Source: a virus. From it: a stretch of DNA of 63,818 bases. Every line of letters starts with the position of its first letter. Within the stretch, counting starts at the first letter, position 1. Location of the stretch: IMG/VR virus record IMGVR_UViG_3300034069_001263, positions 1 to 63,818 of that record. One strand, given 5' to 3'. The notes beneath the pieces are model-generated. The model did no database searches. It was not told the origin of the DNA and saw nothing but the letters and a program-made list of their open reading frames with translations. Positions 1 to 63,818 of this stretch are shown here, one piece after another. Position numbers and translations under genes: made by a program.

Positions 1-141
1 CGCATCCCGCTCACCAATCCGATCGGGCTCGTGAACTACTACTACTAAGTCTCAACATAATGTGGTAATTCCAGGTCATGCCGTTTCTTCTCCTACTGGC
101 TGTTGTCGTTGCCCTGTTCGTAATTAGCGTCGCGCTGATGC
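1..141. repeat. Terminal overlap copy 1 (identical to 63678-63818)
   Basis: Read base by base: cgcatcccgctcaccaatcc...cgcgctgatgc occurs at both ends; bases 1-48 are the 3' end of gene 62853-63725. Confidence 0.95.
52..66. repeat. Genome-wide palindrome copy TCAACATAATGTGGT
   Basis: Intergenic, 12 nt upstream of ATG 78; preceded by AGTC. Confidence 0.8.
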
Positions 142-305
142 CGAAGCCGAAGCAGCCAAAGCCGCCGGCTGCGCAAGATTTGGAGAACCCGACCGCCGAG
201 GCGGGCCGCGAAATTCCGGTAATCTTCGGCACTGTCACAATCAAGGGTGTAAATATCCTCGACTATACCGATAAGTCGATCCACACCTACGAGGTGAAGG
301 CGTGA
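78..305 (+). CDS. Small membrane-anchored protein of the tail-tip module
   Basis: 75 aa; N-terminal TM helix FLLLLAVVVALFVISVALM followed by a Pro/Lys linker; lies between the BR0599-type tail gene and the J-like gene. Confidence 0.5.
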   Translation: MPFLLLLAVVVALFVISVALMPKPKQPKPPAAQDLENPTAEAGREIPVIFGTVTIKGVNILDYTDKSIHTYEVKA

Positions 306-496
306 ACCTAATAACAATCGACGATATCCGCAACGCAGGCTATTGCGCCTTTGGGGCGCGCCGGTGGTTCGAGGCATACGGCCTTGATTTCCGTGCCTTC
401 ATCGAAAACGGGATCGACGAAGCCAAGTTCTTGGGCACCGGCGACGCCCTGGCCCAGCGAGTGGTGGACGTGAAGGCGGAACGCGCAAATGGGTAA
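302..496 (+). CDS. Hypothetical protein (tail-tip module)
   Basis: 64 aa; GTG start overlaps the previous stop and its own stop overlaps the next start; no family recognised. Confidence 0.4.
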   Translation: MNLITIDDIRNAGYCAFGARRWFEAYGLDFRAFIENGIDEAKFLGTGDALAQRVVDVKAERANG

Positions 497-3149
497 GAGC
501 GGCAGCGCCAAGCAGCAGGTCAACGAGTATCTGCTCTCAATGCACTTCGGCGTTGCGCAGGGCTTGGACGCCATCACAGGCATCTATGTCGGCGAGCGGC
601 AAGCTTGGTCGGGCAACGTCACCTCCGAAACGGCGATCCCGCTTACGAACGAGTATCTGTTCGGCGGTCCGAAGAAGGAAGGCGGCATCCGCGGGATCGC
701 CTACTATCTGCCCGGCGGCCCCACCCAGATCATGCCTGCGGGCCTCGCTGGACGCAGGGGCCTCACCAGTGCTTCGTCGCCGGCTTACCGGGGGCTGAGC
801 AGCGTCTATTTCGTGGGGTCAATAACGCCGGGTCTCGGTTACTACTGGGGTGCGACACCCTACCTGCCGAGCGTGTGGATTCAGGGTCGGCGCGCGCCCA
901 AGGGCCTCAATCCCGACTACGCGATGGTGGCGGACCAGCTCGCGGCGTCTTTCAACGGCTATGTCGCGACGGTGGCCGGAACAACCGTCACGCTGGCGGA
1001 TGGTCACCTAACAACCATCGGCACGCACAGCGCCAGCCTGACCGTGAGCGCGAGCGACGGCACCAAGACGATCATCTTGGACGGCACCACGATCGAGATC
1101 CAGCCCTTCACCACCGATGATGACGGCAACCAGCATTCCGGCACGACGGCGATCGTCAATGGGTATGATGGCGTAGTCGAGAACGACTATGTGACCCTGA
1201 ACGGCGTGACGGTAGAGGTGATCGGCAACACGGTGTCGATCACGATGGGCAACGCAGGTGGCACCGACGCTAATCCGTCCCACATCATCTTCGAATGCCT
1301 CATGAACCCGATCTGGGGTATGGGTGGCGTGCCCGCCCTGGTGGATCAGGACAGCTTCGAAGCGGCAGCGGTCACGCTCTACCATGAGGGCTTCGGGCTT
1401 TCCATGGTGTGGACGAAAGAGTCCTCCATTGAGGACTTCATCAGCGAAGTACTCGACCATGTGCAGGGCGCACTCTATGTTGATCCGGACACGGGTAAGC
1501 TGACCCTGAAACTGTTCCGCGACGACTACGACGTGACGACACTGCCGCTCATCACGCCGGACAACGCTGTGCTCGACAGCTTCCAGCGCAAGCTCTGGGG
1601 CGAAACTGTCAACGAGATCGTTGTCACCTGGACGAACCCGTCTAACGAGCAGGACGAAACCGTCACGCAGCAGGATCTCGGCAACATCGCGATGCAAGGC
1701 GATGTGGTCTCCGACAGCCGTAACTATTACGGGGTCCGAACGGCCGATCTCGCCACCCGGCTAGGCGTGCGCGACGTGCGCCAATCATCTGCGCCCTTGG
1801 CGAGCGTGGAGGCGCTGCTTGATCGAGCATCATGGAACTTGAAGCCCGGCAGCGTGCTCCGAGTGACTTGGCCCGAGTACGACCTCGAAAACCTCATCAT
1901 GCGAGTGGTTGAAATCGACTACGGCAAGATCGGGTCGCCTGAGATCACCGTGTCGCTGCTCCAAGACATCTTCTCGCTGGAGGATGCCGACTTCACATCC
2001 GCGCCCACCACCGGGTTTACGGGCAGCGCGCAACCGCCGTCACCCATGAACCACGCAAAGATCATCACCTCACCGTACTTCTTCTCCTCGCGGGTGCTTT
2101 CTGCGGCCGACGCGGCGGCGATCAGCTACCCCGAGGTCATGACGGCGATCCTTGGCGCGTCGTCCAACACGGATGCTTCCTTCTTCGAAATCGTGGATGT
2201 GAGCACGCTGCCGACCGGGCAACAGGTGTCGGAGGTGCGCGGCACTCGATCGCTGCTCGGCTACAGTCTGTTGCCATCACCTCTCGGCGAAGAGGCAACC
2301 AGCACGATCGCCGCCTTCGGTCCGATCACATCTGGCCTTGGCCCGAACGTGGCGGGCTTCATTTTCATCGGCGAGGACGAGGCTTCTCAAGAGATTGCGC
2401 TGATCGAGTCCTATGATGATGGGGACGGCTGGCACATCTCCCGCGGGGTTCTCGACACAATACCGCGGGCATGGGCTGCCGACACCCCCATCTGGTTCTA
2501 CGACGTTCGCACGACGCTGCTAGACGATCAGCGTTACTCCGATGGTGAGTCCGTCAACTACAAGTTCCTGACGGTCACCTCTCAAGGTATTCTCGACCCG
2601 TCCGACGCCCCTATTCAAGGCGCAGTGCTTAGCGCGCGCCCCTACATGCCGAACCGGCCGGCGAACGTGGTGGTTGGCGGCTCGCCGTTCGGCACCGTTG
2701 ACCTGTCGGCTTCGGCGCCCACGTCGGTGGACATAAGCTGGAGCAACCGCAACCGGTTAATGGAGGACACTGTCGTCGTCCGGTGGGCGGACGGCACCAT
2801 CGCGCCAGAGGCGAACCAGACCACCACTGTTGTGCTTACGAGCACAAGCGACGGCAGTGTCTTGTCAACCACGGATGGGCTGACGGGCACGACCTATTCC
2901 CTTCCGTCAAGCGCCTTCGGGTCTGAAATCCAGGCTGACGTGACGCTCTACTCGAAACGCGACGGCTACCGCTCCTTCATGGGTGTCACCCGTCGCGTAC
3001 GGATCAAGCCGGACCCATCCGATCCAGGTTCAAGCCCCGGCAATCCCGCTCCGCCAACCGGGGGCGGTTACACTCCGCCGACGACGTATCCGGACCCTCA
3101 AAATCCGCCGGCCTACACAGGCCATGGTTTGCGGACTGCCGTTCCTTGA
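489..3149 (+). CDS. Host-specificity / central tail fibre protein (lambda J-like)
   Basis: 886 aa; J-type core NPSHIIFECLMNPIWGMGG...GKLTLKLFRDDYD; Pro-rich C-terminus; last gene of the tail module. Confidence 0.75.
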   Translation: MGKSGSAKQQVNEYLLSMHFGVAQGLDAITGIYVGERQAWSGNVTSETAIPLTNEYLFGGPKKEGGIRGIAYYLPGGPTQIMPAGLAGRRGLTSASSPAYRGLSSVYFVGSITPGLGYYWGATPYLPSVWIQGRRAPKGLNPDYAMVADQLAASFNGYVATVAGTTVTLADGHLTTIGTHSASLTVSASDGTKTIILDGTTIEIQPFTTDDDGNQHSGTTAIVNGYDGVVENDYVTLNGVTVEVIGNTVSITMGNAGGTDANPSHIIFECLMNPIWGMGGVPALVDQDSFEAAAVTLYHEGFGLSMVWTKESSIEDFISEVLDHVQGALYVDPDTGKLTLKLFRDDYDVTTLPLITPDNAVLDSFQRKLWGETVNEIVVTWTNPSNEQDETVTQQDLGNIAMQGDVVSDSRNYYGVRTADLATRLGVRDVRQSSAPLASVEALLDRASWNLKPGSVLRVTWPEYDLENLIMRVVEIDYGKIGSPEITVSLLQDIFSLEDADFTSAPTTGFTGSAQPPSPMNHAKIITSPYFFSSRVLSAADAAAISYPEVMTAILGASSNTDASFFEIVDVSTLPTGQQVSEVRGTRSLLGYSLLPSPLGEEATSTIAAFGPITSGLGPNVAGFIFIGEDEASQEIALIESYDDGDGWHISRGVLDTIPRAWAADTPIWFYDVRTTLLDDQRYSDGESVNYKFLTVTSQGILDPSDAPIQGAVLSARPYMPNRPANVVVGGSPFGTVDLSASAPTSVDISWSNRNRLMEDTVVVRWADGTIAPEANQTTTVVLTSTSDGSVLSTTDGLTGTTYSLPSSAFGSEIQADVTLYSKRDGYRSFMGVTRRVRIKPDPSDPGSSPGNPAPPTGGGYTPPTTYPDPQNPPAYTGHGLRTAVP

Positions 3150-3153: not shown

Positions 3154-3168
3154 TCAACATTATGTTGA
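3154..3168. promoter_or_regulatory. Palindrome copy TCAACATTATGTTGA inside a sigma70-like promoter spacer
   Basis: TTGAAA (3146-3151), 17-nt spacer containing the palindrome, TATAGC (3169-3174); ATG 3183 lies 9 nt after the -10 with no SD. Confidence 0.6.
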
Positions 3169-4667: not shown

Positions 4668-5931
4668 ACTGAAGCTGTGGGCGACTGCCGCCCAGGCTCG
4701 CTATATCGACGCGATCCTTGAACACGGCACGCAAGCAGCCGCCGCCCGCGTGCTGCAGATCAACCAGCGGACGATCGAGCGCGGCATCGCGGCGGTGCTG
4801 CGGAAATCACGCGCTGACGCCGAGGCGCCGAACGACAATGCGCCCGGTTTCGAGGTGCGAGGCGTAAGCACGTCCTATGACCAAGCTGGGCAGGTTCAAG
4901 CGCGCCATGTCCGTGAAGCGCCCGTCAGCCCTTTCGACGGAGGCGGGATCGGCGAAAGCCCTGCGCGCGACGGAGGCGATCATTACGTCGTGAAGGGGGT
5001 CAGCACCTACTTCGACGGAGAGGGGCAGCAGCGCGGCCAGTGGGTCAAGACGAAGCTGGACGATCAGCGCCGCGCAGATGCTGCTCGCGCCGCTTTTGCA
5101 GCCATGGCGGACGAACTCCCCCGCCTTAACCCCGTGGCAGCGCCCGCCCACAGCCTTCCACACCTGTGCAACCTCTACACCATGACCGACGCCCATGTTG
5201 GTATGCTGGCCTGGCACAAGGAAGGCGGCGCCAACTGGGATCTCAAGACGGCCGAGCGGGAACTGACCGGCTGCTTCCAGCAGATGATCGCCTCGTCGCC
5301 GGCCGCCGCAACTTGCGTCATCAACCAGTTGGGCGACTGGCTGCATTTCGACGGTCTCGATGCTGTGACGCCGACGAACCGGCACCTGCTCGACGCGGAC
5401 GCTCGCTTCCAGAAGGTAGTCGTCGCGTCGCTGCGCATCCTCCGCTCGATCGTGGATATGGCGCTCCGCCGGCACGAGACGGTCCACATCATCATGGCGG
5501 AGGGCAATCACGACGTGGCGTCGTCGGTATGGCTTCGGGTGATGTTCGGCGCGCTCTACGAGAACGAGCCGCGGGTCATCGTCAACGACTCCGCGCTGCC
5601 CTATTACATGCACCGCCATGGCAAAACGGCGCTTTGGTTCCACCATGGCCACCTGAAGAAGTTCGAAGGCTTGCCCGGTCTCATCGCCGCGCAGTTTTCG
5701 GTCGCGTGGGGCGAAACGACGAAGCGCTATATTCACATGGGGCACTGCCACCATGAGCGGGTGCAGGAGTTCCCCGGCGTCAAGGTCGTGCAGCATCCCA
5801 CCTTGGCAGCGCGCGACGCCTATGCGGCGCGGCACGGCTACCTGAGCGAGCGACAGGCGACGGCCTACACCTACCACGCCGAGTACGGGCAGGTGGGCGC
5901 ATACACCGTGACGCCCGAAATGCTTGCCTGA
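4651..5931 (+). CDS. HTH plus calcineurin-like metallophosphoesterase fusion protein
   Basis: Metal-binding motifs GDWLHFDG, GNHD, HHGH, GHCHH; N-terminal HTH-like QAAAARVLQINQRTIERG; start uncertain (TTG 4651 chosen, frame open from 4576). Confidence 0.6.
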   Translation: MSISPELKLWATAAQARYIDAILEHGTQAAAARVLQINQRTIERGIAAVLRKSRADAEAPNDNAPGFEVRGVSTSYDQAGQVQARHVREAPVSPFDGGGIGESPARDGGDHYVVKGVSTYFDGEGQQRGQWVKTKLDDQRRADAARAAFAAMADELPRLNPVAAPAHSLPHLCNLYTMTDAHVGMLAWHKEGGANWDLKTAERELTGCFQQMIASSPAAATCVINQLGDWLHFDGLDAVTPTNRHLLDADARFQKVVVASLRILRSIVDMALRRHETVHIIMAEGNHDVASSVWLRVMFGALYENEPRVIVNDSALPYYMHRHGKTALWFHHGHLKKFEGLPGLIAAQFSVAWGETTKRYIHMGHCHHERVQEFPGVKVVQHPTLAARDAYAARHGYLSERQATAYTYHAEYGQVGAYTVTPEMLA

Positions 5932-5935
5932 ACTC

Positions 5936-5950
5936 TCAACATTGTGTGGA
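5936..5950. repeat. Palindrome copy TCAACATTGTGTGGA
   Basis: Intergenic; the right half runs into GGAG, which serves as the SD for ATG 5955. Confidence 0.8.
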
Positions 5951-5954
5951 GTCG

Positions 5955-6668
5955 ATGATGGACGGCACTCGGGTTCAGACGGCGCTGACGAAGGCGGGTT
6001 ACCCGTGCGGCCGCATCGACGGCGCGATGGGGAAGCTCACCTACGGCGCGCTCTTCGCCTACGCGGCCGGCGCCGCGAGCACTTGCAGCGCAGAGCTCGG
6101 CGTGTCGGCTGTCACGGCGTTTCCGCTGTACGGGTGCGACACGCCACGGAAGATCTGCTTCGCCATCGCCGAGGTCAGCCATGAGACGGGCAACTACGCC
6201 GCTTGGGAGGAGGATTTCTCCGGCTACACGGCCAAGAACCTGCTGGACAACTGGGGGCCGGGCAAGGGTGGTCGGATCAAGAGCCTCGCCGACGCACAGG
6301 CGCTGATCGCTGCGGCACGGACGGACCCCGATGCGATCCCGAACCGGGTCTACGCCAGGCCGGAATACGGCAACACCAACCCCGGCGACGGTGCGCGTTA
6401 CAAGGGCCGCGGCGCCAACATGCAGACCTTCAAGTGCAACTACCAAGCTGCCCAGGACCACACGGGAGTTCAATTTGTTGCGCATCCGGAGTTGATGGCG
6501 CAGCCTGGCCCGTCGTTGTTGGTTGCGGCGTTCTACTGGCAGAGCCGAGGCTGCTGGGCGAAAGCCGAGAAGAACGATCCAGCCGCTTGGCGGAGCATCA
6601 CCAATGGCGGCGTGATCGGACTTCCCGACTTCACTGCTCGCACCAAGCGGCTGCTCGGCTTGTTCTGA
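5955..6668 (+). CDS. Endolysin: peptidoglycan-binding domain plus glycoside hydrolase family 19
   Basis: N-terminal VQTALTKAGYPCGRIDGAMG; GH19 signatures SHETG and KGRGANMQTFKCNY; GGAG 3 nt upstream of the ATG. Confidence 0.8.
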   Translation: MMDGTRVQTALTKAGYPCGRIDGAMGKLTYGALFAYAAGAASTCSAELGVSAVTAFPLYGCDTPRKICFAIAEVSHETGNYAAWEEDFSGYTAKNLLDNWGPGKGGRIKSLADAQALIAAARTDPDAIPNRVYARPEYGNTNPGDGARYKGRGANMQTFKCNYQAAQDHTGVQFVAHPELMAQPGPSLLVAAFYWQSRGCWAKAEKNDPAAWRSITNGGVIGLPDFTARTKRLLGLF

Positions 6669-7034: not shown

Positions 7035-7076
7035 CTATCAGATTTATCTGCGCTCGCAAGGGGGAGTTTCTGATAG
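7035..7076. promoter_or_regulatory. 8-bp inverted repeat CTATCAGA / TCTGATAG in the divergent region upstream of the repressor
   Basis: Arms at 7035-7042 and 7069-7076, between gene 6685-6987 (-) and the repressor (+); possible operator. Confidence 0.3.
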
Positions 7077-7141
7077 TGCAAGCGAACACAGATCGGTCTG
7101 TGTATGGACGGGTCGCAGCACGCTTCTATAGCCCCCTGGCC

Positions 7142-7864
7142 ATGAGCGAGCCTGTGAATCCCCCTCTCTACGATGCCCTGGTGGCGTTGAAGCCGGAGGG
7201 TTGGTCTCTGCACAAATGGATGCAGGAGGCGGGCGTCAGTCGGCAGTTTTTCGGGGATCTGAAGAAGAAGGGCAGCGATCCGAAGGGCGGCACGCTGGAG
7301 AAAGTGCTGGGTGCCATCGGCTACACTCCGGCACAATTCTACGATGAGAGCCCCATCCAGCCGCCCCGCGGACGAGGCAATGTGCTTCCGTTCCGAGCGG
7401 CCGGTGAGCATCGCGACGTTCCGCTCGTGGGTACGGCTCAGGCCAGCGAAATGGAAATCGATGGCGACGGCGAGGTACGCTTCGTGGAGCGGATGAGCCT
7501 CGACCTGGACAATCAGGTAGACTACCTACGCCGCCCGCCATCACTCGCGACTAAGCGCGATGTGTACGCCATCACCGTGGCTGGGGATTCAGCATCACCG
7601 AAATACGACGATGGGGAGCCTGCCTACGTCGATCCGAAGCGGCCACCGCGCTCCGGCGACTGGGTGGTAGTGCAGCTTGTCAAGGAGGAGCCGGAGGCGG
7701 AGGAGCGCCGCCTGCACATCGCTCTGCTCAAGCAGTTCGTACGCCGCACAGACAGCTACGTCGAACTGCACCAGCTCAATCCCGACGTGCGCTTCCAAGT
7801 GCCCAACCGGCAGGTTCATGCGATCCATCGCGTCATCCCGTGGTCGGAAATCGTGTTTTTCTAA
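7142..7864 (+). CDS. CI/LexA-type repressor with S24 autopeptidase domain
   Basis: N-terminal HTH region; C-terminal GDSASP (Ser) and LLKQF (Lys) dyad; adjacent to attP and int. Confidence 0.8.
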   Translation: MSEPVNPPLYDALVALKPEGWSLHKWMQEAGVSRQFFGDLKKKGSDPKGGTLEKVLGAIGYTPAQFYDESPIQPPRGRGNVLPFRAAGEHRDVPLVGTAQASEMEIDGDGEVRFVERMSLDLDNQVDYLRRPPSLATKRDVYAITVAGDSASPKYDDGEPAYVDPKRPPRSGDWVVVQLVKEEPEAEERRLHIALLKQFVRRTDSYVELHQLNPDVRFQVPNRQVHAIHRVIPWSEIVFF

Positions 7865-8002: not shown

Positions 8003-8017
8003 TCTTCATTATGTTGA
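8003..8017. repeat. Degenerate palindrome copy TCTTCATTATGTTGA
   Basis: Between attP and int. Confidence 0.55.
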
Positions 8018-8068: not shown

Positions 8069-8083
8069 TCCACATAATGTTGA
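8069..8083. repeat. Palindrome copy TCCACATAATGTTGA
   Basis: 73 nt upstream of the int start; the right half forms TTGACA. Confidence 0.8.
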
Positions 8084-8155: not shown

Positions 8156-9301
8156 GTGGGTAAGCTGACGGTGAAGTCGGTGGCGGCTCTGAATGAGCCC
8201 GGCCGCTACTCGGACCAGGACGGCAGTGGCTTCCATCTGCGTGTGGATGGTCAGGGGCGAAAGTACTGGCTGTTGCGCACGCAAGTGGATGGCAAGCGGC
8301 GCGACGTGAACATCGGCTCCGTAGCCCGAATGTCGCTCGCGACGGCCAGGGCCCGAGCGCAGGAGGTGTTGACCAAGAACGCGGAGAAAGGCGCATTTCG
8401 CAGTTTCAAGCCGACATTTGCCGAGGCGGTCGGACTTGCTCATGCGGCGCGGACCGATGGGTACAAGAACGAGAAGCACATCGCCCAGTGGCGGACAACG
8501 CTGGAGACTTACGCCAACCCGTCGATCGGCGGAAAATACATCGACACGGTGGATCGAGCCGATGTTGTGGGGATTCTCAGCCCCATCTGGCTTACGAAGC
8601 CTGAGACAGCTCGCCGGGTGCTCCAGCGTATCGACCGCGTCATGCGCTGGGCTGTAGGAAACGAGCATCGCGCGGATCGCATCGACATGGATCTTGTGCG
8701 AGACGCGCTACCTCGACAGCCTCAGCATCGCGCCACGGTGCGTCACATGCCTTCCATTCCCTGGGAAGAAGCGCCTGCCTTCTATCGCCAAATTCACGAC
8801 AGCCGCAGCGCGCCGGAGGTCCGCTGGGCCCTGTCACTGCTGATGCTGACGGCGGTGCGGCCGGGCAACATGCGAAGCGCCAAGCGTGAGCAATTTGATT
8901 TGAACAGCGGAGTCTGGCTGGTGCCAGCCGGAGATATGAAAAGCGGTCGCGCTCACCGTGTGCCGTTGTCTCAGGCTGCCGTCCGCATCGTCACTACCGC
9001 AATGGCAGCGCACGACTACGATCGCCTGTTCACGGTCAAGGGCGGGGAGTTTTCTCCTGACACGTTGCGCATGGCCATGCGGCGTCTCGGTCGCTCCGAG
9101 GTTCCCCATGGCTTTCGATCAACGTTCAAGGAGTGGAGTCGACACGCTGGATATGCGGATCACCTGAGCGAACAGGCGTTGGCTCATCTTGATCCGAATG
9201 AGGTACGGGCGGCTTATGCACGCCACGACATGCTAGAGGTCCGCCGGCCTATGATGGTTGCGTGGGCTTCATTTCTGGAAGGGACGCCACATACCCCTTG
9301 A
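8156..9301 (+). CDS. int: Tyrosine integrase (P4-type, DUF4102-like N-terminus)
   Basis: GKLTVKSVAALNEPGRYSDQDGSGFHLRV N-terminus; catalytic HGFRSTF and AAYARHD regions; next to attP. Confidence 0.9.
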   Translation: MGKLTVKSVAALNEPGRYSDQDGSGFHLRVDGQGRKYWLLRTQVDGKRRDVNIGSVARMSLATARARAQEVLTKNAEKGAFRSFKPTFAEAVGLAHAARTDGYKNEKHIAQWRTTLETYANPSIGGKYIDTVDRADVVGILSPIWLTKPETARRVLQRIDRVMRWAVGNEHRADRIDMDLVRDALPRQPQHRATVRHMPSIPWEEAPAFYRQIHDSRSAPEVRWALSLLMLTAVRPGNMRSAKREQFDLNSGVWLVPAGDMKSGRAHRVPLSQAAVRIVTTAMAAHDYDRLFTVKGGEFSPDTLRMAMRRLGRSEVPHGFRSTFKEWSRHAGYADHLSEQALAHLDPNEVRAAYARHDMLEVRRPMMVAWASFLEGTPHTP

Positions 9302-9479
9302 GCGCGGCAAGCTCGATCACAGTCCGGCAACCGCGCTTCAGAGCCTTCAAATCTCCGCGTCCTACCATGCGGTAAAGGGTTTGCTTGCTGCACCCGAGCA
9401 TACCGGCCGCCGTTCCGAAACCGACAACCAGAGGCTCCGGGGCAGGCGCTGCAGCGAAGCGGCGCCTTACAACGCCCAT
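9249..9479 (-). CDS. xis: Excisionase / AlpA-type HTH DNA-binding protein
   Basis: 76 aa; HTH GTAAGMLGCSKQTLYRMVGRGDLKALK; convergent with int and overlapping its 3' end. Confidence 0.6.
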   Translation of the reverse strand: MGVVRRRFAAAPAPEPLVVGFGTAAGMLGCSKQTLYRMVGRGDLKALKRGCRTVIELAALKGYVASLPEMKPTQPS

Positions 9480-9706
9480 ACGAGCTCGCGCGCCGTGGCA
9501 GTGGCGAGCACGCGCCGCGGCTGGTCCTCGCGGTAGAGCCGCAGCGAGAAGCGGGGCACTTCGCGGAGGTCGAAATGTAGGCCCGTTTCGTCGGCGCCGG
9601 TGAACACCTCTTCCAGGCGAGGGGTGAGGGCCAGTGACAGTTCGCTGGTGCGCCGGAACGCCGCTTCGAGGCCGCGGGTGATGAGGCGGCGGGCAGAAAA
9701 AATCAT
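9467..9706 (-). CDS. Hypothetical protein
   Basis: 79 aa from ATG 9706 (GGAGA upstream); the longer ORF to 9790 would run through the palindrome and the methylase gene end. Confidence 0.4.
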   Translation of the reverse strand: MIFSARRLITRGLEAAFRRTSELSLALTPRLEEVFTGADETGLHFDLREVPRFSLRLYREDQPRRVLATATARELVWAL

Positions 9707-9713: not shown

Positions 9714-9728
9714 TCTCCATTATGTTGA
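9714..9728. repeat. Palindrome copy (minus orientation TCAACATAATGGAGA)
   Basis: The gene-proximal half is GGAGA, the SD for ATG 9706. Confidence 0.75.
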
Positions 9729-11476: not shown

Positions 11477-11491
11477 TCACCATTATGTTGA
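11477..11491. repeat. Palindrome copy (minus orientation TCAACATAATGGTGA)
   Basis: 6 nt upstream of the gapR-like ATG 11471. Confidence 0.75.
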
Positions 11492-14744: not shown

Positions 14745-14759
14745 TCCACAATATGTTGA
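14745..14759. repeat. Palindrome copy (minus orientation TCAACATATTGTGGA)
   Basis: Intergenic between MazG and gene 14373-14735; preceded by CAGTC. Confidence 0.8.
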
Positions 14760-21789: not shown

Positions 21790-21790
21790 G

Positions 21791-48278: not shown

Positions 48279-48284
48279 GAAGAA

Positions 48285-52547: not shown

Positions 52548-52562
52548 TCAACAAAAGGTTGA
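52548..52562. repeat. Palindrome copy TCAACAAAAGGTTGA
   Basis: Preceded by CAGTC; 8 nt upstream of ATG 52570. Confidence 0.75.
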
Positions 52563-55601: not shown

Positions 55602-55616
55602 TCAACATAATGTGGA
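55602..55616. repeat. Palindrome copy TCAACATAATGTGGA
   Basis: Upstream of the tail tube gene; a GAGGAG SD follows. Confidence 0.8.
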
Positions 55617-56437: not shown

Positions 56438-56922
56438 TGTCCACTCTGCTCAAGTTGAAGCGGCCGATCCGCGAAGCAACCGTTCAGGCCTCGGATGACG
56501 ACTCGTTCGTCGTTCGGGGCCTGAACCCCATTCAGGTGTTCGCGTTGTACCGCCGGCACACCGGTCAGTTCGGCGACCTGTTCAAACAGGCGATGGCGTC
56601 CGAGGCGTCCCAGGCGGACATCTACGACGTTGCGACGAAGCTGGCTGCGGACGCGCCGACGCTGCTGGCGGAACTGATCGTCGTGGCGTCCGGCGGTTCT
56701 CCCGACATCGTTGACGAGTTCGACGATGCCTACGCAGTGGCTGCGGCTCTACCGTTTCCGGTGCAGGCCGACGCGCTGGCCAAGATCGGCGACTTGACCT
56801 TCACGTCGGAGATGCCGCCGGGAAAGTTCCTCGCCCTCGTCGTGAAGATGGCAAAGGCGGCGACGGGGGCGATCGGCCAGCAAGCATCGACGAGTGGCTC
56901 TGGGGCATCCGGCGCAGTCTGA
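56437..56922 (+). CDS. Tail assembly chaperone (G-like)
   Basis: 161 aa between tube and tape measure; contains the slippery heptamer. Confidence 0.65.
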   Translation: MSTLLKLKRPIREATVQASDDDSFVVRGLNPIQVFALYRRHTGQFGDLFKQAMASEASQADIYDVATKLAADAPTLLAELIVVASGGSPDIVDEFDDAYAVAAALPFPVQADALAKIGDLTFTSEMPPGKFLALVVKMAKAATGAIGQQASTSGSGASGAV

Positions 56923-57134
56923 GCCTCCTCGTCGGAGCGGGCTATGCGGAAGATGCCGTTTGGCAGTGGCCCTTGGTGCTGGTGATGGATGAGGCAGCCC
57001 TGATCGTCGAGCGCGAGAATGGACGCATTTCGACTGAGGCAATCACGCTCCGCGCTGCCGCCGCCGCCGTCATGTCGAAGGAAGGGGCTCAATACTTCGA
57101 CTCGATCATCGCCCGACTGACCGGAGAACAGTAG
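56437..57134 (+). CDS. Tail assembly chaperone frameshift product (GT-like), -1 shift at 56820-56826
   Basis: The -1 frame is open from 56715 to TAG 57132 and reads IDEWLWGIRRSLSLLVGAGYAEDAVWQWPLVLVMDEAALIVERENG... Confidence 0.55.
56820..56826 (+). promoter_or_regulatory. Programmed -1 ribosomal frameshift slippery site G GGA AAG
   Basis: Zero-frame codons CCG GGA AAG; same heptamer as the lambda G/GT site. Confidence 0.7.
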
Positions 57135-60100
57135 ATGGCTACCAGTCGGAACTCCGATGTTAATCTAGTCATCAAGGCTCGCACTGAGGGCGAGAAAGCT
57201 ATCGCTTCACTCGGTGAAGCTTTGCAGCAGGTATTTCAGGGTGCTAAAGATGGATCTTCCGATCTCGGTAGATTAGCGGGGGCACTCGCCAGTCTGGACA
57301 AGGCTGCTGCGTCGGTTGTGGGCACGAGTGAGCGCACTTCGGCTTCAATCAGTAAATCAGCTACTGCGGCCCATGCTGCGGCTGCCGCACTTAGCGAGCA
57401 ACAGGGGCGAGTCGAGACCCTGACTCGGGCCGTTTCACTACTTCAAACTGAAGCGGATAAGGCGTTTATTGGACCGAAGCGAGATGGCTTGAGCGAAACG
57501 CTCAAGTCCGCGCAAGGTCAGTTGCGTCAAGCCGAGTCGGCTGTTCAGCGTTTCGAGCGTGCCTACGAGAAAGCAATTAACGGCGTACAGTCTGGACGAT
57601 CTTCTCTTCTTGATCTCAAGTCTGTGTATCGTGACGTTGCCGATGGCCAGAACATTGCACGAGAGCGCATAGACCAAGCAACTGAGTCCCTGAACAGGCA
57701 AAGCGAAGCCGCTCGCACTCTCAATAATATCCAAGCATCGCAGTACCGCGACTCGGGTAAAAGTGCAGAAAGATCAGCGAGTATATTCGCGGCAGGCTTG
57801 ACTGCAACTGAGCGTTCATTGAACGCGGCTGATGAATTGCGGCGCAAAGAAGACGCTGTTGCTCAGACGCTTCGGCAGCAGAATGAACTACGCGAAAAAG
57901 GCGCGGCGCTTCGATCTATCCAAGCATCGCAGTACCGGGACTCGGGCAAGTCGGCCGAACTCTCGGCTCAGGTGTTCGCGGCCGGGCCGACGACGTTCGA
58001 GCGCAACACCGCTGCCGCCGCTTCGCAGGCCGATGCCGTGGAGGCGAAGAACGCTGAAGCGCAGGCGAATCGCGAGGCAGCCGTCGCCCACGCCATGTTT
58101 GAGGCGCGGGTGCGTGCTGGCGTTCAGGCGCTGAAGGAAGAGGAGCAAGCCGCTCGCGACGCCGCCAAGGCCGTCAACGATCAGGCCATTCACGAAGCCG
58201 CTGTCGCGCATCAGATGTTTGAGGCGCGGGTGCGTGCCGGTGTCGAGGCGTTGAAAGCGGAAGAGCAGCAGGCGGCGCGTGATGCGGCCGACGCCAAGGC
58301 GCTGGCCGCAGCGCTCGACCCCCTGGCGGTGCTGCAGGAACGGTACAACGTCGCACTCGCCCGCGCCCGCGAGCTGAAAGACGCCGGCCGGCTGAGCGGC
58401 GAAGCGCTGGCCCGTACCGAGGTGCGTCTCGCCGCCGAACTGGAAGCGGGCAAGAAGTCGCTGGAGGCGGGCGCTGCGGTCGGCAAGCTGGGGTTGTTCG
58501 GTCTCAAGCCCTACGAGGTGCAGAACCTCAGCTACCAGATCAACGACGTTGTGACCGGCCTCGCTTCCGGTCAGCACCTCTCCCAGGTGGTAGCGCAGCA
58601 GGGCGGCCAGATCCTGCAGCTTTTTCCGAAGGTTGGCGGGGTGGTGCTCGGCGCGCTGTCGAACCCCGGCATCCTGGCGGGTGTCGCGACGTTCGTGGCG
58701 CTGGGCGTAGCGATCAAAGGCGCCGCGGACGACGCGGGCCGGCTTCGCGGCTGGACGGCGCAACTCAGCTTCCGATCGGACGGTGGCAGCTACAACGCCG
58801 CCGCGCTGGCCGACGAGCAGAAGCAGCTTCAGCGGCTGGGCGCATCAGCCGACGACGCCAAGGCCGCCCTCAGCACATTTCTCGACCACGGCATTTCGCC
58901 GGACCGGCTCGCCACGTTCGGCCGCGTCGCTTCAGAGACGGCGGAGACCCTGGGCATCAAACTGCCCGAAGCGGCGACGCTGCTCGCCGAGGCGTTCTCC
59001 GGCGGGTATGACGCCGTCGTGAAGCTGGACGACAAGCTCAACTTCCTGACCGCCAGCCAGCGCACCCAGATCCGCACCCTGTTCGAACAGGGTGACGCGC
59101 AGAAGGCTCAAGCCGAAGCGCTCGACATCTACATCGGCAAGCAGGATGAGCTCGCCCGTAAATCAAGGGGCGAGTGGGGCGATGCCGTTCGGTCGCTGAC
59201 CAGTTCCGTCCACGCGCTGTTCGACGCGCTGGGCGGCAACGTCGTCATCCAGCACCTTCTGGCGGACTTCACCGAGTTCGCGCGCAAGATCAGCGACATC
59301 GCGCGCGACGTGGACCGCATCGTCAACGCGGCCAAGATCGCCGAAGCGGCCCGTGACCTGAACAGCAGCGCCGATGCGGTGGCGGCAGCCGAAAAGTCGG
59401 GCGATCCGGTGAGGGTTGCTGCGGCGCGGCGTGCCAACGCCGATGCGGCGCGACGGCTTGAAGCCGCCCAGGGCAACCCGCAGGACGCCGCTGACCCTGG
59501 TGGCGCGGTCACGACCGGTGGTGGAAACAGCACGCAGGCCAAGCAGGACGCCGACAAGGTCCACCAAATCCAGATCGAGGAGGACTTGCAGCGGCTCCGC
59601 GACGCCGGCCAGCAGCGGCTCCTCACCACACAGGAGCGCACCCAGCGCGAGTTCCTGGCAGGGGAGCAGGCTGCCCGATCCGCCACGGATGCCGCGGTCG
59701 CAGCAGCGGAGCGCCGTCGCGCCGTCGCGCATGAGACGGCCACGATCGAGAAGGAGAGCGACGCGCGCTCGAAACAGGCCGCCGCCGATCGCGAGAAGGA
59801 GATCCACCAGTTCGAGGGTCGCGTCATCGGCGCGGAAGGCGGGGCGGGGAAGAACCCGTACTCCTCCGCGTCGGGCTATGGGCAGTTCACCGAGACGACG
59901 TGGCTGAGCCTGGCGAAGAAGGTCTACCCCGACATGACCTCGGGGATGAGCCGCGACCAGGTGCTGGCGCTGCGTCAGAACGAGGCCGTCGCGCGCGGCA
60001 TCATCGACGAATATGCGCGCGAGAACGCCAAGTTCCTAGAATCGTTCGGCGGCAAGGTCACCGCCGGCAACCTGTACCTCGCTCATTTCCTGGGTGGGGC

Positions 60101-61535
60101 AGGGGCCAAGGCGGTGCTGACCGCGGGCGCCGACACGCCGGTTGATACGGTGCTGCGCCGGATGCCCAACGCCGATGCGGTCCTATCAGGGAACAAGTCG
60201 TACCTCCGCACCGATGGCGGGAAGGGTCGCTATCGCACGTCGGGCGAACTGCAGACGTTCATGGCGGCGCGCATGGGCGACACGGGACAGGCCCAGACGG
60301 AGGGGCAGGCCGCCATCGCGAACCTAATCCAGGAAGCGACCAACCGGCAGAACAACTTCAACGAAGCGGTGCGGCACGGCGTGGAGGATCGCCAGGACGC
60401 CGTAAAGGCGTTGCAGCAGGAAGTGGGGCTCTACGGCACGGCGCTGATCGCGGCGCAGCGCCAGAAGGCCATCACCGACGCCGAGCGCGAGTTGCGGCAG
60501 AAGGCGGAGGACGCCAACAAGAACCTGAAGCCCGGCGAGACGCGCGTCGAAGTGTCGCCCGAGCAGATCGCTGCGGCGAAGGACGTGGCGGGGGCGCTGT
60601 TCGACGCGCAGCACGCGGCCGAGATGCTGAAGGCGTCACTAGCCGATAATCAGCGCCCGGTGGACGCCCTGGAAGAACAGAAGCGGCTCCTGGAGGCGCA
60701 GGCCGAATTCCTGCGGTCGATCGGCGAGAACAGCGCCGCCGACCATATCGACAAGCAGGTGGAGGCGCTGACGCCGAAGCTGAAAGCCGCTTACGATCAA
60801 CTCATCCAGTTCTACCAGGCGCTGTCGCCAGAGCAGCGCGTGCAGTTGGGGATCGTTGACACGAAGCAGTTCGACAACGTGATCGAGAAGCTGCAACAGG
60901 GCAAGGAACAGAGCCAGGAATGGGGGAAGGTTGCTGGCGTCTCCGCGAAGCAAATCGCACAGTCGTTCTCGTCGAGTCTGACAAACTCAATCACCAGCTT
61001 CTTGACGAAGATTACCCAGGGCAAGAACGTGTTCAAGTCGTTGGGCGAGAGCGTTCGCGAGTTCGCGGCCTCGTTCATCCAGTCAATTGCGCAGATGATC
61101 TTGCAGTTGCTGGCTTACGCCGCTGCGGTGCAGATTCTGAAAGCGCTGGGCGTTCCGGTGCCGAGCGGCGCCATGGCGGGCGTGTTCCACGGCGGCGGCA
61201 TTGTCGGTGGCAACGCTACCATGCGTTCGGTCAGCCCTGCGTGGTTTGCGACCGCACCTCGCTATCACACAGGCGGTATTGTTGGCCTCGCTCCGGATGA
61301 GCGGCCCGCCGTTTTGAAGGTCGGCGAGGAGGTGCTTCCGGACACCGACCCCCGCCACCGCGCCAATGCCGGCCGGTCGGGTGGCGGTTCGGATGCCTCG
61401 GGTCAACAGCCTCAGAACATTACCGTCATCAATGCGCAGGACCCTGAACACGCCGCCGAGATGATGCTTCGCACCAAGTCCGGTGAGCGCGCCGTGCTGA
61501 ACATTATTCGCAACAACCCGAAGGCGCTCGGTTGA
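57135..61535 (+). CDS. Tape measure protein with internal lytic transglycosylase-like domain
   Basis: 1466 aa; coiled-coil repeats; GAGKNPYSSASGYGQFTETTWL...LYLAHFLGGAGA domain. Confidence 0.9.
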   Translation: MATSRNSDVNLVIKARTEGEKAIASLGEALQQVFQGAKDGSSDLGRLAGALASLDKAAASVVGTSERTSASISKSATAAHAAAAALSEQQGRVETLTRAVSLLQTEADKAFIGPKRDGLSETLKSAQGQLRQAESAVQRFERAYEKAINGVQSGRSSLLDLKSVYRDVADGQNIARERIDQATESLNRQSEAARTLNNIQASQYRDSGKSAERSASIFAAGLTATERSLNAADELRRKEDAVAQTLRQQNELREKGAALRSIQASQYRDSGKSAELSAQVFAAGPTTFERNTAAAASQADAVEAKNAEAQANREAAVAHAMFEARVRAGVQALKEEEQAARDAAKAVNDQAIHEAAVAHQMFEARVRAGVEALKAEEQQAARDAADAKALAAALDPLAVLQERYNVALARARELKDAGRLSGEALARTEVRLAAELEAGKKSLEAGAAVGKLGLFGLKPYEVQNLSYQINDVVTGLASGQHLSQVVAQQGGQILQLFPKVGGVVLGALSNPGILAGVATFVALGVAIKGAADDAGRLRGWTAQLSFRSDGGSYNAAALADEQKQLQRLGASADDAKAALSTFLDHGISPDRLATFGRVASETAETLGIKLPEAATLLAEAFSGGYDAVVKLDDKLNFLTASQRTQIRTLFEQGDAQKAQAEALDIYIGKQDELARKSRGEWGDAVRSLTSSVHALFDALGGNVVIQHLLADFTEFARKISDIARDVDRIVNAAKIAEAARDLNSSADAVAAAEKSGDPVRVAAARRANADAARRLEAAQGNPQDAADPGGAVTTGGGNSTQAKQDADKVHQIQIEEDLQRLRDAGQQRLLTTQERTQREFLAGEQAARSATDAAVAAAERRRAVAHETATIEKESDARSKQAAADREKEIHQFEGRVIGAEGGAGKNPYSSASGYGQFTETTWLSLAKKVYPDMTSGMSRDQVLALRQNEAVARGIIDEYARENAKFLESFGGKVTAGNLYLAHFLGGAGAKAVLTAGADTPVDTVLRRMPNADAVLSGNKSYLRTDGGKGRYRTSGELQTFMAARMGDTGQAQTEGQAAIANLIQEATNRQNNFNEAVRHGVEDRQDAVKALQQEVGLYGTALIAAQRQKAITDAERELRQKAEDANKNLKPGETRVEVSPEQIAAAKDVAGALFDAQHAAEMLKASLADNQRPVDALEEQKRLLEAQAEFLRSIGENSAADHIDKQVEALTPKLKAAYDQLIQFYQALSPEQRVQLGIVDTKQFDNVIEKLQQGKEQSQEWGKVAGVSAKQIAQSFSSSLTNSITSFLTKITQGKNVFKSLGESVREFAASFIQSIAQMILQLLAYAAAVQILKALGVPVPSGAMAGVFHGGGIVGGNATMRSVSPAWFATAPRYHTGGIVGLAPDERPAVLKVGEEVLPDTDPRHRANAGRSGGGSDASGQQPQNITVINAQDPEHAAEMMLRTKSGERAVLNIIRNNPKALG

Positions 61536-62863
61536 TGCCGCTTGATCCGATTCCGCTTTGGCCATTCCCGCCCAACTGGCGGCAACCCTACACGGTGTCT
61601 TACGAGTTCAAGACGGACATCTTCACCAGTCGATCGGGCAAGGAGCAGCGGCGCGCTCAGCGCACCACGCCGCGACGGACGTTCCATTTCACGGCGACGA
61701 CGCGCGACGATGACACGCGGCTGTTCCGTCGCACCTTGGCGCTGCTGCAGGGCAAAACGCTGCTCGCGCCCGACCTGTCCCGATTCGCCACCCTGGCAAC
61801 GGCAGCGGGCGCAGGCTCCAACGCACTCCAGATCGCGGGCTCCATCCCGTCGTGGTGCGCAGGCGCCGAAGAAATCATCGTGGCGGCACGCGGCCAGCCG
61901 TATCAACTCGCACAGGTTCAGTCGGTCAAGGGCGCAACGGTCTATTTAGTTGATCCGCTCTCTGCGCCGGTGCCTGGTTTCGCGTCGCTACATCCTATCG
62001 TGCGCGGGCGGCTTCGCGACTCCACCTCGGTGAGTGACTACACTGATACGGTGCAGGAAGCCGAGGTGACGATCGCGGCCGACCCAGCGGCTGGATTGCC
62101 TGAGGATCTTGGCTCTCCGGACGATGTGTTCAACAAGCGGGAAGTGTTCACCTTCGCACCGAACCGCGTCAAGCCAATCGAAGGCGAGTTCCGCAAGTTC
62201 ATCGACACGGTGGACTTCGGAAGAGGTCGGGTGATTAATTATTTCCCCGTCGCTTTCAGCGTTCGCATGAAGCAACTGCAGATGCTGACGCCGACCGTGG
62301 ACGATCGCACGCGACTGGTTGCACTGTTCCTGCGCATGAAGGGGCAGCGCGGTGAGTTCTACATGCCGTCCTATGAGGATGACTTCACAATCCTGGACAG
62401 CACCTCGACGACGGTGACGGTGCAGGGGAACTGGGCCAATGACCTCTACCAGGGGGACGACACTCGCCGCGCGATCATGGTGGAGTGGAACGGCATCAAG
62501 TTCTATCGGCGGGTCACGGCGAGTGGTCTAAGCGGATCGAACACGGTCCTTACCACTGATGAGCCGTGGCCTTGCCCGCTGGATGATCTCGCGGTGTTGC
62601 GGTGGCTGTCGGTCTATCGGATGGGGGTCGATCAGCTATCGCTCGATTGCGTGACCAGCACCGTCTCCCAGACGCAATTGACGGTGCTGTCCCTGGAAGA
62701 TCTGCCCGTCGCACCGCCGGATGACATCTTCCCGCTGACCGATGCCGCGGCGTGGCTGGCCGACGCTTGGGGCGTGGCGTTCTCTGTGTCGCGCATTCTC
62801 GACCCACTCGACCGCATCGTCAACATCAGCTTTCCTGAGGTGAGCCGGCGCTATGTCTCTTAG
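61535..62863 (+). CDS. Distal tail protein (GTA g12 / DUF2460-like N-terminus)
   Basis: WPFPPNWRQPYTVSYEFKTDIFTSRSGKEQRRAQRTTPRRTF; TGATG junction with the tape measure (alternative TTG 61532). Confidence 0.6.
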   Translation: MPLDPIPLWPFPPNWRQPYTVSYEFKTDIFTSRSGKEQRRAQRTTPRRTFHFTATTRDDDTRLFRRTLALLQGKTLLAPDLSRFATLATAAGAGSNALQIAGSIPSWCAGAEEIIVAARGQPYQLAQVQSVKGATVYLVDPLSAPVPGFASLHPIVRGRLRDSTSVSDYTDTVQEAEVTIAADPAAGLPEDLGSPDDVFNKREVFTFAPNRVKPIEGEFRKFIDTVDFGRGRVINYFPVAFSVRMKQLQMLTPTVDDRTRLVALFLRMKGQRGEFYMPSYEDDFTILDSTSTTVTVQGNWANDLYQGDDTRRAIMVEWNGIKFYRRVTASGLSGSNTVLTTDEPWPCPLDDLAVLRWLSVYRMGVDQLSLDCVTSTVSQTQLTVLSLEDLPVAPPDDIFPLTDAAAWLADAWGVAFSVSRILDPLDRIVNISFPEVSRRYVS

Positions 62864-63725
62864 CAGTTATGAAGCATCGCGTTTCTCTGGTGATCCCGTC
62901 AATCTGTACTTGTTCAAGTACGGAGTCGGTCAAGCAAGCTATTTCGGATACACTGATGCTGAAGAAACCGTAAATTTTGGCGGTAACGATTACCAACCGA
63001 TCCCGATCGACCGCGGCAAGCTGAAGTCTACGGCTTCGATAGACAAATCTACCCTGACTGTTACGACGGAACAGGACAGCGAACTGGCAGGGCTGTATCT
63101 GAACTATCCGCCATCGTCGGTGACCACTCTTGTGATCTACCAGGGGCACGTGGACGATCCTGATCGTGACTACCGCGTGGTGTGGAGTGGAATCGTCACC
63201 TCCTGCTCCCGCAAAGGTTCGCAGGCCGAGTTCTCCTGCAAGCCGATCAGCACGATGCTCCAACGCAACGGCTGCCGGCGTCGGTACCAGTATGGTTGCC
63301 CGCATGTCCTCTACAGCCAGGGCGACGGGCTGTGCAACGCCTCCAAGGTTGATGCGACGGTCACCACCACGGTGCAGAGCATCAACGGCGCGCGCGTGAT
63401 CCTGCCGAATGGATGGTGGGGCCAGCGCGGTGCGGACAAGTTCCTCCAGGGCATGGTCGAGTGGATCGGTCTCAACGGGAACATCGAGACGCGAACGATT
63501 CTGCGCGTCGAAAGCGGTGGTTTGCGCCTACTGCTGAGCGGGCCTGCGACAGGGCTCGGACCGGGCGCGCTACTAAACGTGGTCCTGGGCTGCAACCACA
63601 AGTCCGGCACCGATGCGCAGCCTGACGGCGATTGCGGGCCGCTGCACAACAACGTGCTGAACTTCGGTGGGCAGGAGCGCATCCCGCTCACCAATCCGAT
63701 CGGGCTCGTGAACTACTACTACTAA
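62853..63725 (+). CDS. Tail protein of the DUF2163 / phage BR0599 family (GTA g13-like)
   Basis: N-terminal PVNLYLFKYG; C-terminal CNHKSGTDAQPDGDCGPLHNNVLNFGGQERIPLTNP. Confidence 0.75.
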   Translation: MSLSSYEASRFSGDPVNLYLFKYGVGQASYFGYTDAEETVNFGGNDYQPIPIDRGKLKSTASIDKSTLTVTTEQDSELAGLYLNYPPSSVTTLVIYQGHVDDPDRDYRVVWSGIVTSCSRKGSQAEFSCKPISTMLQRNGCRRRYQYGCPHVLYSQGDGLCNASKVDATVTTTVQSINGARVILPNGWWGQRGADKFLQGMVEWIGLNGNIETRTILRVESGGLRLLLSGPATGLGPGALLNVVLGCNHKSGTDAQPDGDCGPLHNNVLNFGGQERIPLTNPIGLVNYYY

Positions 63726-63818
63726 GTCTCAACATAATGTGGTAATTCCAGGTCATGCCGTTTCTTCTCCTACTGGCTGTTGTCGTTGCCCTGTTCGTAA
63801 TTAGCGTCGCGCTGATGC
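63678..63818. repeat. Terminal overlap copy 2 (identical to 1-141); includes palindrome copy 63729-63743 and the first 64 nt of the gene equivalent to 78-305
   Basis: Base-by-base identity with 1-141. Confidence 0.95.

Follow-up and report, generated by a model that had tools for sequence, protein, structure and literature searches.

A dispersed set of 24 dyad sites and its candidate helix-turn-helix reader in a temperate siphovirus of the Casjensviridae type

Genome organization

The window analyzed here, the whole 63,818-nt stretch of the IMG/VR virus record IMGVR_UViG_3300034069_001263, corresponds to a 63,677-bp circular genome followed by a 141-bp wrap. A short palindrome, TCAACA-N3-TGTTGA, recurs along this genome, and an initial annotation had interpreted it either as a stoperator-like operator network or as a phage-specific promoter. 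As far as its sequence tells, the phage is a temperate Chi/Enc34-like siphovirus of the Casjensviridae type, and its large terminase subunit (TerL) is 47-48% identical to the TerLs of Rhizobium phage RHph_X2_30 and Achromobacter phage AchV4.

A self-trained gene map gave 90 genes and a non-coding fraction of 9.3%; 36 of the 81 adjacent same-strand gene pairs overlap, in line with the gene overlaps initially noted. Four regulatory genes are relevant to the palindrome. An S24-peptidase protein (S24 repressor) is encoded at 7076-7864, a Cro-like helix-turn-helix (HTH) protein, g58, at 31917-32216 on the minus strand as the first gene of the leftward early operon, an extracytoplasmic function (ECF)-type sigma factor with regions 2 and 4 at 33378-33869 on the plus strand, and an XRE-type protein, g71, at 42551-43231 on the plus strand, directly ahead of the packaging genes. 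The genome also encodes an integrase (int, 8156-9301), a primase-polymerase/VapE protein, a DUF2800 exonuclease, an Enc34-type ssDNA-binding protein, a polymerase and a helicase. The window proteins that were scanned contained no RNA polymerase domain, in agreement with the earlier statement that no single-subunit RNA polymerase is encoded. The largest open reading frame (ORF; 1,466 aa, 57135-61535) was not part of the Pfam scan; from its position and a tblastn match to the gene annotated as tape measure in AchV4, we take its product to be the tape-measure protein.

Relatives were reached via TerL and via a large protein database combined with contig look-ups. The closest are a Sphingomonas hankookensis prophage (L045) and five metagenomic contigs (L056 and L128-L131). 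A scan of IMG/VR with GTCTCAACANNNTGTGGA returned 44 single-copy chance matches and no relatives, and neither g71 nor the sigma factor, used as a single query against IMG/VR, retrieved related loci.

Number and placement of the dyad sites

The word TCAACANNNTGTTGA was found six times as an exact match, against none in 100 shuffles, and 30 times with at most two mismatches, against 1.33 +/- 1.17 expected and 5 in the highest shuffle. On the circle these became 29 matches, corresponding to 24 unique sites and five extra matches (1225, 15853, 54501, 60991, and 63646), all of them in coding DNA and four with G/C-rich centres, which look like chance occurrences. The non-coding fraction contained 23 of the 24 sites (binomial P=4.6e-23). 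Only the site at 35205 is wholly intragenic, and the one at 17147 overlaps the final 7 nt of a called ORF (16839-17153). The enrichment over shuffles and the intergenic bias, which the initial annotation had proposed to quantify, were both confirmed. The motif was present at each of the 25 positions given there, the last (63729-63743) being the wrap duplicate of site 52, and its statement that all copies but 35205 are intergenic holds apart from the clipped ORF end. The four perfect copies it counted are in fact six, those at 16775 and 45205 being perfect too.

The sites occupy short gaps on both transcription arms. In tight gaps, a site begins 4-9 nt past the upstream stop codon and ends 3-14 nt ahead of the next start codon, and the sites of divergent regions are farther from start codons, as had been described; at least 9 sites have no start codon within 20 nt.

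The first site on the map, TCAACATAATGTGGT (52-66, plus strand), stands 11 nt ahead of the first gene in the block 78-3149. The perfect dyad at 3154-3168 (extended form ATATCAACATTATGTTGATAT) lies 4 nt past the gene of an 886-aa tail protein and 14 nt before the next gene, and TCAACATTGTGTGGAg (5936-5950, plus strand) precedes the endolysin gene by 4 nt, with a GGAG supplied by its proximal half. Two minus-strand sites, TCTTCATTATGTTGA (8003-8017), between the putative attP and int, and TCCACATAATGTTGA (8069-8083), 72 nt before int, are opposed to the flanking genes. Three minus-strand sites, given here in gene orientation, closely precede genes of that strand: TCAACATAATGGAGA (9714-9728) by 7 nt for gene 9467-9706, TCAACATAATGGTGA (11477-11491) by 5 nt for gene 11217-11471, and cagtcTCAACATATTGTGGA (14745-14759) by 9 nt for gene 14373-14735. 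The perfect dyad at 16775-16789 occupies a divergent gap, 49 nt from either flanking start codon. It is followed by TCAATAAAATGTTGAca (17147-17161, minus strand), 53 nt before gene 17215, and by TCAACAAAATGTGGT (23329-23343, plus strand), which precedes the minus-strand moron block 20923-23293 by 35 nt, again in a divergent gap.

Five further minus-strand sites (again in gene orientation) are cagtcTCAACATAGTAGTGA (24976-24990), between minus-strand genes; TCAACATAATGGTAA (25341-25355), 12 nt before the start of gene 25005-25328; gtgTCAACATTATGTGGAcac (25982-25996), whose flanks are paralogous to those of the site at 27835; cagtcTCAACACATTGTGGAg (27151-27165), 9 nt before the start of gene 26551-27141; and TCAACATTGTGTGGAcac (27835-27849), at the edge of an iteron-rich gap. 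Perfect dyads are located in the divergent early control region (32273-32287) and inside the DUF2800/Cas4-like exonuclease gene (35205-35219). Two sites bracket g71, TCAACTTAAAGTTGA (42482-42496), 54 nt before it, and a perfect dyad directly downstream (43356-43370), 35 nt before gene 43406. Another perfect dyad (45205-45219) heads the packaging/late genes, ahead of an uncalled Cys-rich ORF (45248-45421) and the small terminase gene (TerS). Between TerL and a gpW-like gene, TCCACATAATGTTGA is present a second time (48520-48534, minus strand), with its weak half toward a small minus-strand ORF (48467 to 48315). The last two sites, both on the plus strand, precede the major capsid gene by 7 nt (TCAACAAAAGGTTGA, 52548-52562) and the major tail gene by 23 nt (TCAACATAATGTGGA, 55602-55616).

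Anatomy and asymmetry of the sites

When each site was oriented with its better half first, the conserved unit was a 19-bp dyad, TnTCAACA-N3-TGTTGAnA, and we revised the extended consensus of the initial annotation to this form. One perfect TCAACA half is present in all 24 sites, a T at position -2 in 21 and an A at +17 in 14. Variation in the weaker half, T-G-T-(T in 12, G in 10)-G-A, is mainly at position 13. The bases at -1 and +16 are complementary in 13 of the 24 sites, with all four pair types represented and about six expected by chance; this comes in part from the paralogous sites 25982 and 27835 and from GGAG ribosome-binding sites, the remainder being unaccounted for.

Seven sites are symmetric and 17 asymmetric. 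In 14 of the latter, the weak half points toward the start of the gene reading away from the site, as expected from the drift of the gene-proximal half initially described; the sites at 8003, 8069, and 48520 are reversed. Each of the eight sites lying 12 nt or less from a start codon is asymmetric, and the seven symmetric sites are all farther away (Fisher P=0.033), which suggests that the orientation bias may reflect a ribosome-binding-site constraint. The proximal halves of the eight close sites contain GGAG, GGTGA or TGGA, and it is reasonable to consider that they double as Shine-Dalgarno sequences, a proposal already made in the initial annotation. It covers these eight sites and leaves nine distant asymmetric ones unexplained.

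Promoter overlap and the intragenic copy

The single palindrome at 32273 overlaps two putative back-to-back promoters of the sigma70 type, both with plausible -10 hexamers. The rightward one (PR) has its -35 hexamer, TTGAAA (32284-32289), beginning in the right half of the palindrome and separated by a 17-nt spacer from a -10 TTATAT (32307-32312). The leftward one (PL) starts from the left half, with a minus-strand TTGACG (32271-32276), a 17-nt spacer and a -10 TAGAAG (32248-32253). The PR arrangement and a conserved GCGACTCGCC leader are repeated in three of the metagenomic contigs (L129, L130, and L131). The leader past putative PR (32313-32359, GCGACTCGCCG...CGGCGG) can form a stem-loop and is common to these three contigs and the window. 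Upstream of g71, the right half of the site at 42482 overlaps a consensus -35, TTGACA (42493-42498), and a site overlapping this hexamer was also found in L045, L128, and L130. In AchV4 a perfect site abuts the start codon of gp78, and in Klebsiella phage N133 a site is located before gp07.

Scans with the sigma70 consensus matched only two of the 24 sites. Models using the motif centre as a -10, or the right half as a -35, failed except at 32273, and no -35 partner was found above background 16-18 nt upstream of the central CATAAT. The -10-like centre pointed out in the initial annotation is thus left without a -35 partner.

The copy at 35205 encodes F-N-K-M-L-K as TTC AAC AAA ATG TTG AAA. 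These are rare codons: TTG represents 11.6% of the Leu codons of the window and AAA 15.6% of its Lys codons, and for this peptide the string would arise with a probability of about 0.002. Rare codons are used at this place in five genomes. The string is kept in L128 and L129, and in AchV4 with a different spacer. L130 has at this position TTCACT, its own preferred half-site, at the cost of an Asn-to-Thr change. On this codon evidence, the intragenic copy is held by selection at the DNA level.

Conservation in related phages

Related phages were searched for the motif, as had been suggested, and several of them have dyads. In AchV4, TCAAC-N5-GTTGA is present 18 times against 1.07 expected (P=2e-16), and about 25 good TTCAAC-N5-GTTGAA sites are found mostly within its 5% non-coding DNA; in N133, the same dyad is present 16 times against 1.04 expected (P=4e-14). 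In Ruegeria phage DSS3-P1 the element GTCAAC-CGAAA-G, with AAGGAG directly behind it, is present about 10 times; it is the same dyad in degenerate form, with a ribosome-binding site replacing the proximal half. Plain k-mer and dyad enrichment missed this form, its proximal halves being too degenerate, and it was recovered once the search was limited to non-coding DNA. A smaller set of sites, GCAC-N7-GTGC, is present in Rhodobacter phage RcRios. The association between asymmetry and start-codon distance was also observed in N133 and DSS3-P1.

The closest relatives have variant dyads at shared landmark positions: TTTCACTA-N5-GTGAA in L045, where it precedes by 7 nt a capsid gene sharing its first codons with that of the window, TTGTCAGCTTA-N5-GACAA in L056, and TTTCAACA-N5-GTGAAA in L129. 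The recurring positions are the divergent early region, both sides of the g71 homolog, after TerL, before the capsid gene (variant dyads in L045 and L056), before the major tail gene (AchV4, N133, L045, L056, and RcRios), and inside the exonuclease gene. Close site pairs occur in AchV4 and L129, and some copies in relatives directly follow terminator-like hairpins.

The sharing of the TCAAC dyad by three phages isolated on hosts from three proteobacterial classes argues for a phage-encoded reader. Host factors (a DnaA box, LexA, or IHF) were considered and dropped because the variant dyads at the same positions and the three host classes fit a phage-encoded reader better. There was no TCAAC enrichment in the non-coding DNA of either AH2, which has a g71 homolog and only a few weak sites, or BcepNazgul, which lacks g71 and int. 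Both have ATTCGGACC(T) repeat clusters at the genome ends near cos (191-208 and 57538-58013 in AH2, 301-370 and 56876-57235 in BcepNazgul); this is a terminal iteron array unrelated to the dyad network. The papers describing AchV4 (PMC7996906) and the Rhodobacter phage (PMC8601537) do not mention the dyad sites, and literature searches for the dyad gave nothing relevant.

Candidate readers

The initial annotation had listed four possible readers: the S24 repressor, the XRE protein g71, the Cro-like protein g58, and the ECF sigma factor. Neither the S24 protein, nor g59, nor the sigma factor has a homolog in AchV4 or N133, which excludes the S24 protein and the sigma factor as general readers since both phages bear the network, and leaves g71 and g58 as candidates. 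The ECF sigma gene is accessory and is missing from its slot in L129-L131.

Homologs of g71 were found in AchV4 (36% identity, E=7e-44), N133, RcRios, and DSS3-P1, and in all relatives the gene lies between the helicase/small nuclease genes and TerS. Its N-terminal HTH matches by sequence the N-terminal domain of the TP901-1 CI repressor (E=3e-4). A g71-family profile run against all PDB chains retrieved at E<=1 only TP901-1 CI, a putative DNA-binding protein and the LexA HTH, and no mycobacteriophage repressor was found in this search or among the Foldseek top 50 for g71. In the AlphaFold2 model of g71 (mean pLDDT 84), the C-terminal ~130 aa adopt a PD-(D/E)XK nuclease-like fold (I-Ssp6803I, E=7e-5; also Hjc, NhoI, and EcoRV). 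This domain is unlike both S24, which g71 lacks, and the TP901-1 C-terminal domain. An alignment of 172 family members lacks the canonical (D/E)xK motif; D137 is conserved in 87% and E95 in 62%, and most conserved residues of the domain are Gly or Ala. A role in dimerisation is more likely than catalysis. The g71 family comprises 353 clusters (50% identity, E<=1e-30), HTH_3 being the sole Pfam domain recorded among the homologs retrieved, and has no described function beyond "HTH protein." The L045 homolog (5905-6384, 159 aa) has the HTH and lacks the nuclease-fold domain, and variant dyads are still present in this prophage.

The Cro-like g58 is a distant homolog of AchV4 gp71 (24% identity, pairwise BLASTP E=3e-6). 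Its family, with an x-Y-x-W recognition helix, is represented in every genome having the TCAAC network, and AH2 and BcepNazgul, without a dense network, have another Cro type. A comparison of recognition-helix residues with half-site variants across 10 genomes gave no clean code. The prime candidate, and most likely the reader, is g71. Lambda CI and Cro share operators, and by analogy g58 may be a co-reader sharing sites with g71.

Other features of the genome

The segment 7907-7929, between the S24 gene and int, reads TTCGAAT-CCCAC-CCTCTCC-G-CCA, and its layout is exactly that of a tRNA 3' end (T-loop, T-stem, acceptor strand, discriminator, and CCA). The acceptor strand is presumably tRNA-Ser-like, no complete tRNA gene was found by ARAGORN, and the segment is probably the attP core, given its location. 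A 0.8-kb non-coding gap by the primase operon (27850-28590, minus strand) contains about 10 CTGTCAC(A/C)CC iterons, some in each orientation, together with an AT-rich stretch and some 12 GAGTGTG(ACTTTC or CGTTAT) repeats, GAGTGTG being the most non-coding-enriched 7-mer of the genome. It looks like a replication origin or the array of a second regulator.

The uncalled Cys-rich ORF directly upstream of TerS (45248-45421, plus strand, 57 aa) is kept in the corresponding gaps of L128-L131, where the shared pattern is ..GKTPY.SW..A..A..R.RFRDR.G...MN.YRC.FC..WH.G., and its product may be a zinc-ribbon late regulator or packaging factor. Pfam gave no match for this ORF or for several small early proteins. 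A 14-bp G+C-rich hairpin (48284-48316) directly past TerL is terminator-like and coincides with the end of the minus-strand ORF 48315-48467; the TerL/gpW-like junction carries this small inserted ORF in the window and inserted morons in L129.

A 78-aa protein (35678-35914, plus strand) matches the Acb2/Tad1 hairpin domain (PF24729, E=2e-17) and probably acts as a sponge that sequesters cyclic-nucleotide signals of host immunity (anti-CBASS or anti-Thoeris). The moron-like block 20034-23293, bracketed by the dyads at 17147 and 23329, contains an O-acetyltransferase gene on the plus strand, and a gene with a weak GDSL-lipase-like match and two genes without assigned function on the minus strand; it probably modifies the host surface polysaccharide. 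Finally, a 242-aa early protein (28590-29318, minus strand) has a weak match, below the Pfam cut-off, to a class II aminoacyl-tRNA synthetase core (PF00587, E=2e-5), which is unusual for a phage early gene.

Discussion

We consider the 24 sites to be a dispersed operator network for a dimeric phage-encoded HTH regulator, most likely g71, and give this interpretation a probability of roughly 0.6. A dyad with one invariant half in every site fits a dimeric HTH protein. Since the unmodified host polymerase normally reads early promoters, a protein lying over their -35 hexamers should act as a repressor. A dimer bound at 32273 across both -35 hexamers would shut off both early operons, and the site at 42482, over the -35 of the promoter of g71 itself, would suggest autoregulation. 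At the remaining copies, which take up nearly all usable gaps between gene blocks and include the intragenic one, the bound protein would most plausibly act as a roadblock or local silencer, so that the whole genome would be kept quiet, as by the stoperators of mycobacteriophage L5; we infer such an elongation block for the intercistronic copies. Integration would place the sites at 8003 and 8069 between int and the host tRNA gene, where they might act as an insulator against read-through transcription. In gaps of only 23-40 nt, the gene-proximal half would have to serve as ribosome-binding site too, hence the change from TGTTGA to TGTGGA and the apparent orientation bias. The operator network and the stoperator-like layout of the initial interpretation are thus retained on the basis of the dyad, the -35 overlaps and the placement in gaps, and the strict analogy with stoperators is abandoned because of the symmetry of the site.

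Several observations weigh against this interpretation. The Cro-like family accompanies the dense network at least as closely as g71 does; the AH2 homolog of g71 has a similar recognition helix despite the few weak sites of that phage, and the g71 helix of DSS3-P1 differs although this phage uses TCAAC. True stoperators depend on orientation, and a symmetric site does not. The ribosome-binding-site constraint leaves part of the asymmetry unexplained, since nine asymmetric sites are far from any start codon and the three reversed sites are opposed to the flanking genes. Sites also front the most highly expressed late genes (capsid and major tail), which would fit a positive element as well. Finally, AchV4 behaved lytically in the laboratory (PMC7996906).

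One alternative is a compact promoter, either phage-specific or activator-dependent, with CATAAT as its -10, at which host polymerase carrying the ECF sigma factor, or assisted by g71 as an activator, would restart transcription at each gene block. The orientation of 14 asymmetric copies with transcription would fit, as would their location ahead of TerS, the portal block, the capsid, major tail and lysis genes, reminiscent of multi-promoter late systems, the copies that follow terminator-like hairpins in relatives, and the position of g71 at the junction between the replication and late modules, a frequent place for late activators. We nevertheless regard such a promoter as unlikely, and set aside the corresponding option of the initial annotation. 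The centre has no -35 partner, the sigma factor is missing from AchV4, N133, and L129-L131, which all bear the network, and no polymerase was found among the scanned proteins. With start codons 3-14 nt past the motif and the ribosome-binding site inside it, a transcript initiated from the central -10 would lack its own ribosome-binding site, and an activator centred at -41 would put the transcription start within the downstream gene. Dyad symmetry is, moreover, not a property of sigma-type promoters. An N4-type hairpin promoter would have a conserved, stable stem, which is not found here: 8 of the 24 sites have a minimum free energy above -2 kcal/mol. The N4 virion RNA polymerase is also far larger than 1,466 aa.

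The folding energies bear equally on an RNA-level element, such as an intercistronic hairpin hiding the ribosome-binding site or a start-associated sequence tuning translation or mRNA processing. In many copies the proximal half includes the ribosome-binding site and a start codon follows at 3-12 nt, a hairpin of -4 to -8 kcal/mol can form in perfect copies, and the distal half in relatives (ATCAC/TTCAC) is complementary to a GGTGA-type ribosome-binding site. The layout also resembles that of the start-associated sequences (SAS/ESAS) of cluster K mycobacteriophages, short conserved asymmetric motifs which contain the ribosome-binding site a few bases upstream of some start codons. However, several of the sites that fold poorly directly front genes, and the distal TCAACA is unchanged when the proximal half is TGTGGA, TGGAGA or TGGTGA, the mismatches being A.G or C.U and never G.U. 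There are no compensatory stem changes and no Rfam family match. In addition, unlike SAS, which are always tied to starts, the network includes seven symmetric sites, the sites more than 20 nt from starts, some of them in divergent promoter regions, an intragenic copy and three -35 overlaps. These features make an RNA element highly improbable. The intragenic copy and the close site pairs of AchV4 and L129 would be compatible with a DNA function other than transcription control, in which the nuclease-fold domain of g71, with its conserved D137 and its resemblance to I-Ssp6803I, Hjc, NhoI, and EcoRV, would serve for nicking, for marking recombination or replication, or for bridging and compaction. 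We find this very unlikely: the canonical catalytic motif is absent, E95 is poorly conserved and the conserved Gly and Ala residues look structural, and the L045 homolog has no such domain. Transcription control predicts that the sites avoid coding DNA and overlap promoter hexamers, and nicking requires neither.

The operator network favoured here can be compared with several known systems. The stoperators of L5 are 13-bp asymmetric sites bound by a monomer with two DNA-binding domains, and reversal of their orientation abolishes the effect (PMC9283540). As here, the stoperators of cluster A phages (L5 gp71, Bxb1, and TipsytheTRex) are more than 20 dispersed sites, located at early promoters and in short early and late intergenic gaps, mostly oriented with transcription and varying in sequence between related phages (PMC9283540). 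The present network differs by its 15-19-bp dyad, by a candidate reader with one HTH and a nuclease-fold domain, and by hosts that are Proteobacteria instead of Actinobacteria. Its orientation bias, with 14 weak halves on the gene side, three reversed and seven symmetric sites, correlates with start distance and may largely reflect the ribosome-binding-site constraint.

Lambda CI/Cro and TP901-1 CI (OR/OL/OD) also have ~17-bp palindromic operators bound by dimeric HTH proteins over divergent early promoters. These systems have 3-6 operators clustered at the switch, whereas here 24 sites are spread over 64 kb, including the late structural operon, and g71 has no S24 domain. The C1 repressor of phage P1 offers an example of one repressor with many operators scattered over the genome of a Gram-negative phage, each at a separate operon; its operators are 17-bp, asymmetric, monomer-bound and located at promoters, and not, as here, in intercistronic gaps or fused to ribosome-binding sites. 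Oriented intergenic repeats "reminiscent of stoperators" or considered as possible promoters have been described in T1-like phages (TLS; PMC11447400) and in the Nostoc cyanophages A-1 and N-1 (PMC4916379). They have other sequences and belong to other phage families, and no candidate reader or promoter overlap was identified there. By this comparison, the layout is stoperator-like, the symmetry and promoter overlap are lambda/TP901-1-like, and the combination differs from either.

We also propose, tentatively, that Casjensviridae-type phages of alpha-, beta-, and gamma-proteobacteria could have independently evolved a stoperator-like whole-genome silencing, in which a CI-like protein with an HTH and a PD-(D/E)XK fold would block both initiation and elongation on some 20-25 dyads dual-coded as ribosome-binding sites. 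In the boldest version of this proposal, the nuclease-fold domain would be active and the sites might also be cut or nicked.

Networks of repressor sites covering a whole genome have been studied in depth only in actinobacteriophages and P1, and our results indicate a comparable network in widespread proteobacterial siphoviruses. Three cultured carriers (AchV4, N133, and DSS3-P1) make it directly testable. The network raises the questions of how a dimer on a symmetric site would act on an elongating polymerase, how one sequence can be both operator and ribosome-binding site, and what a nuclease-fold domain does in a repressor. The dyad could be used as a marker of operon boundaries and immunity groups in these phages, and the reader together with its site might be developed into an orthogonal regulatory part for use in Gram-negative hosts.

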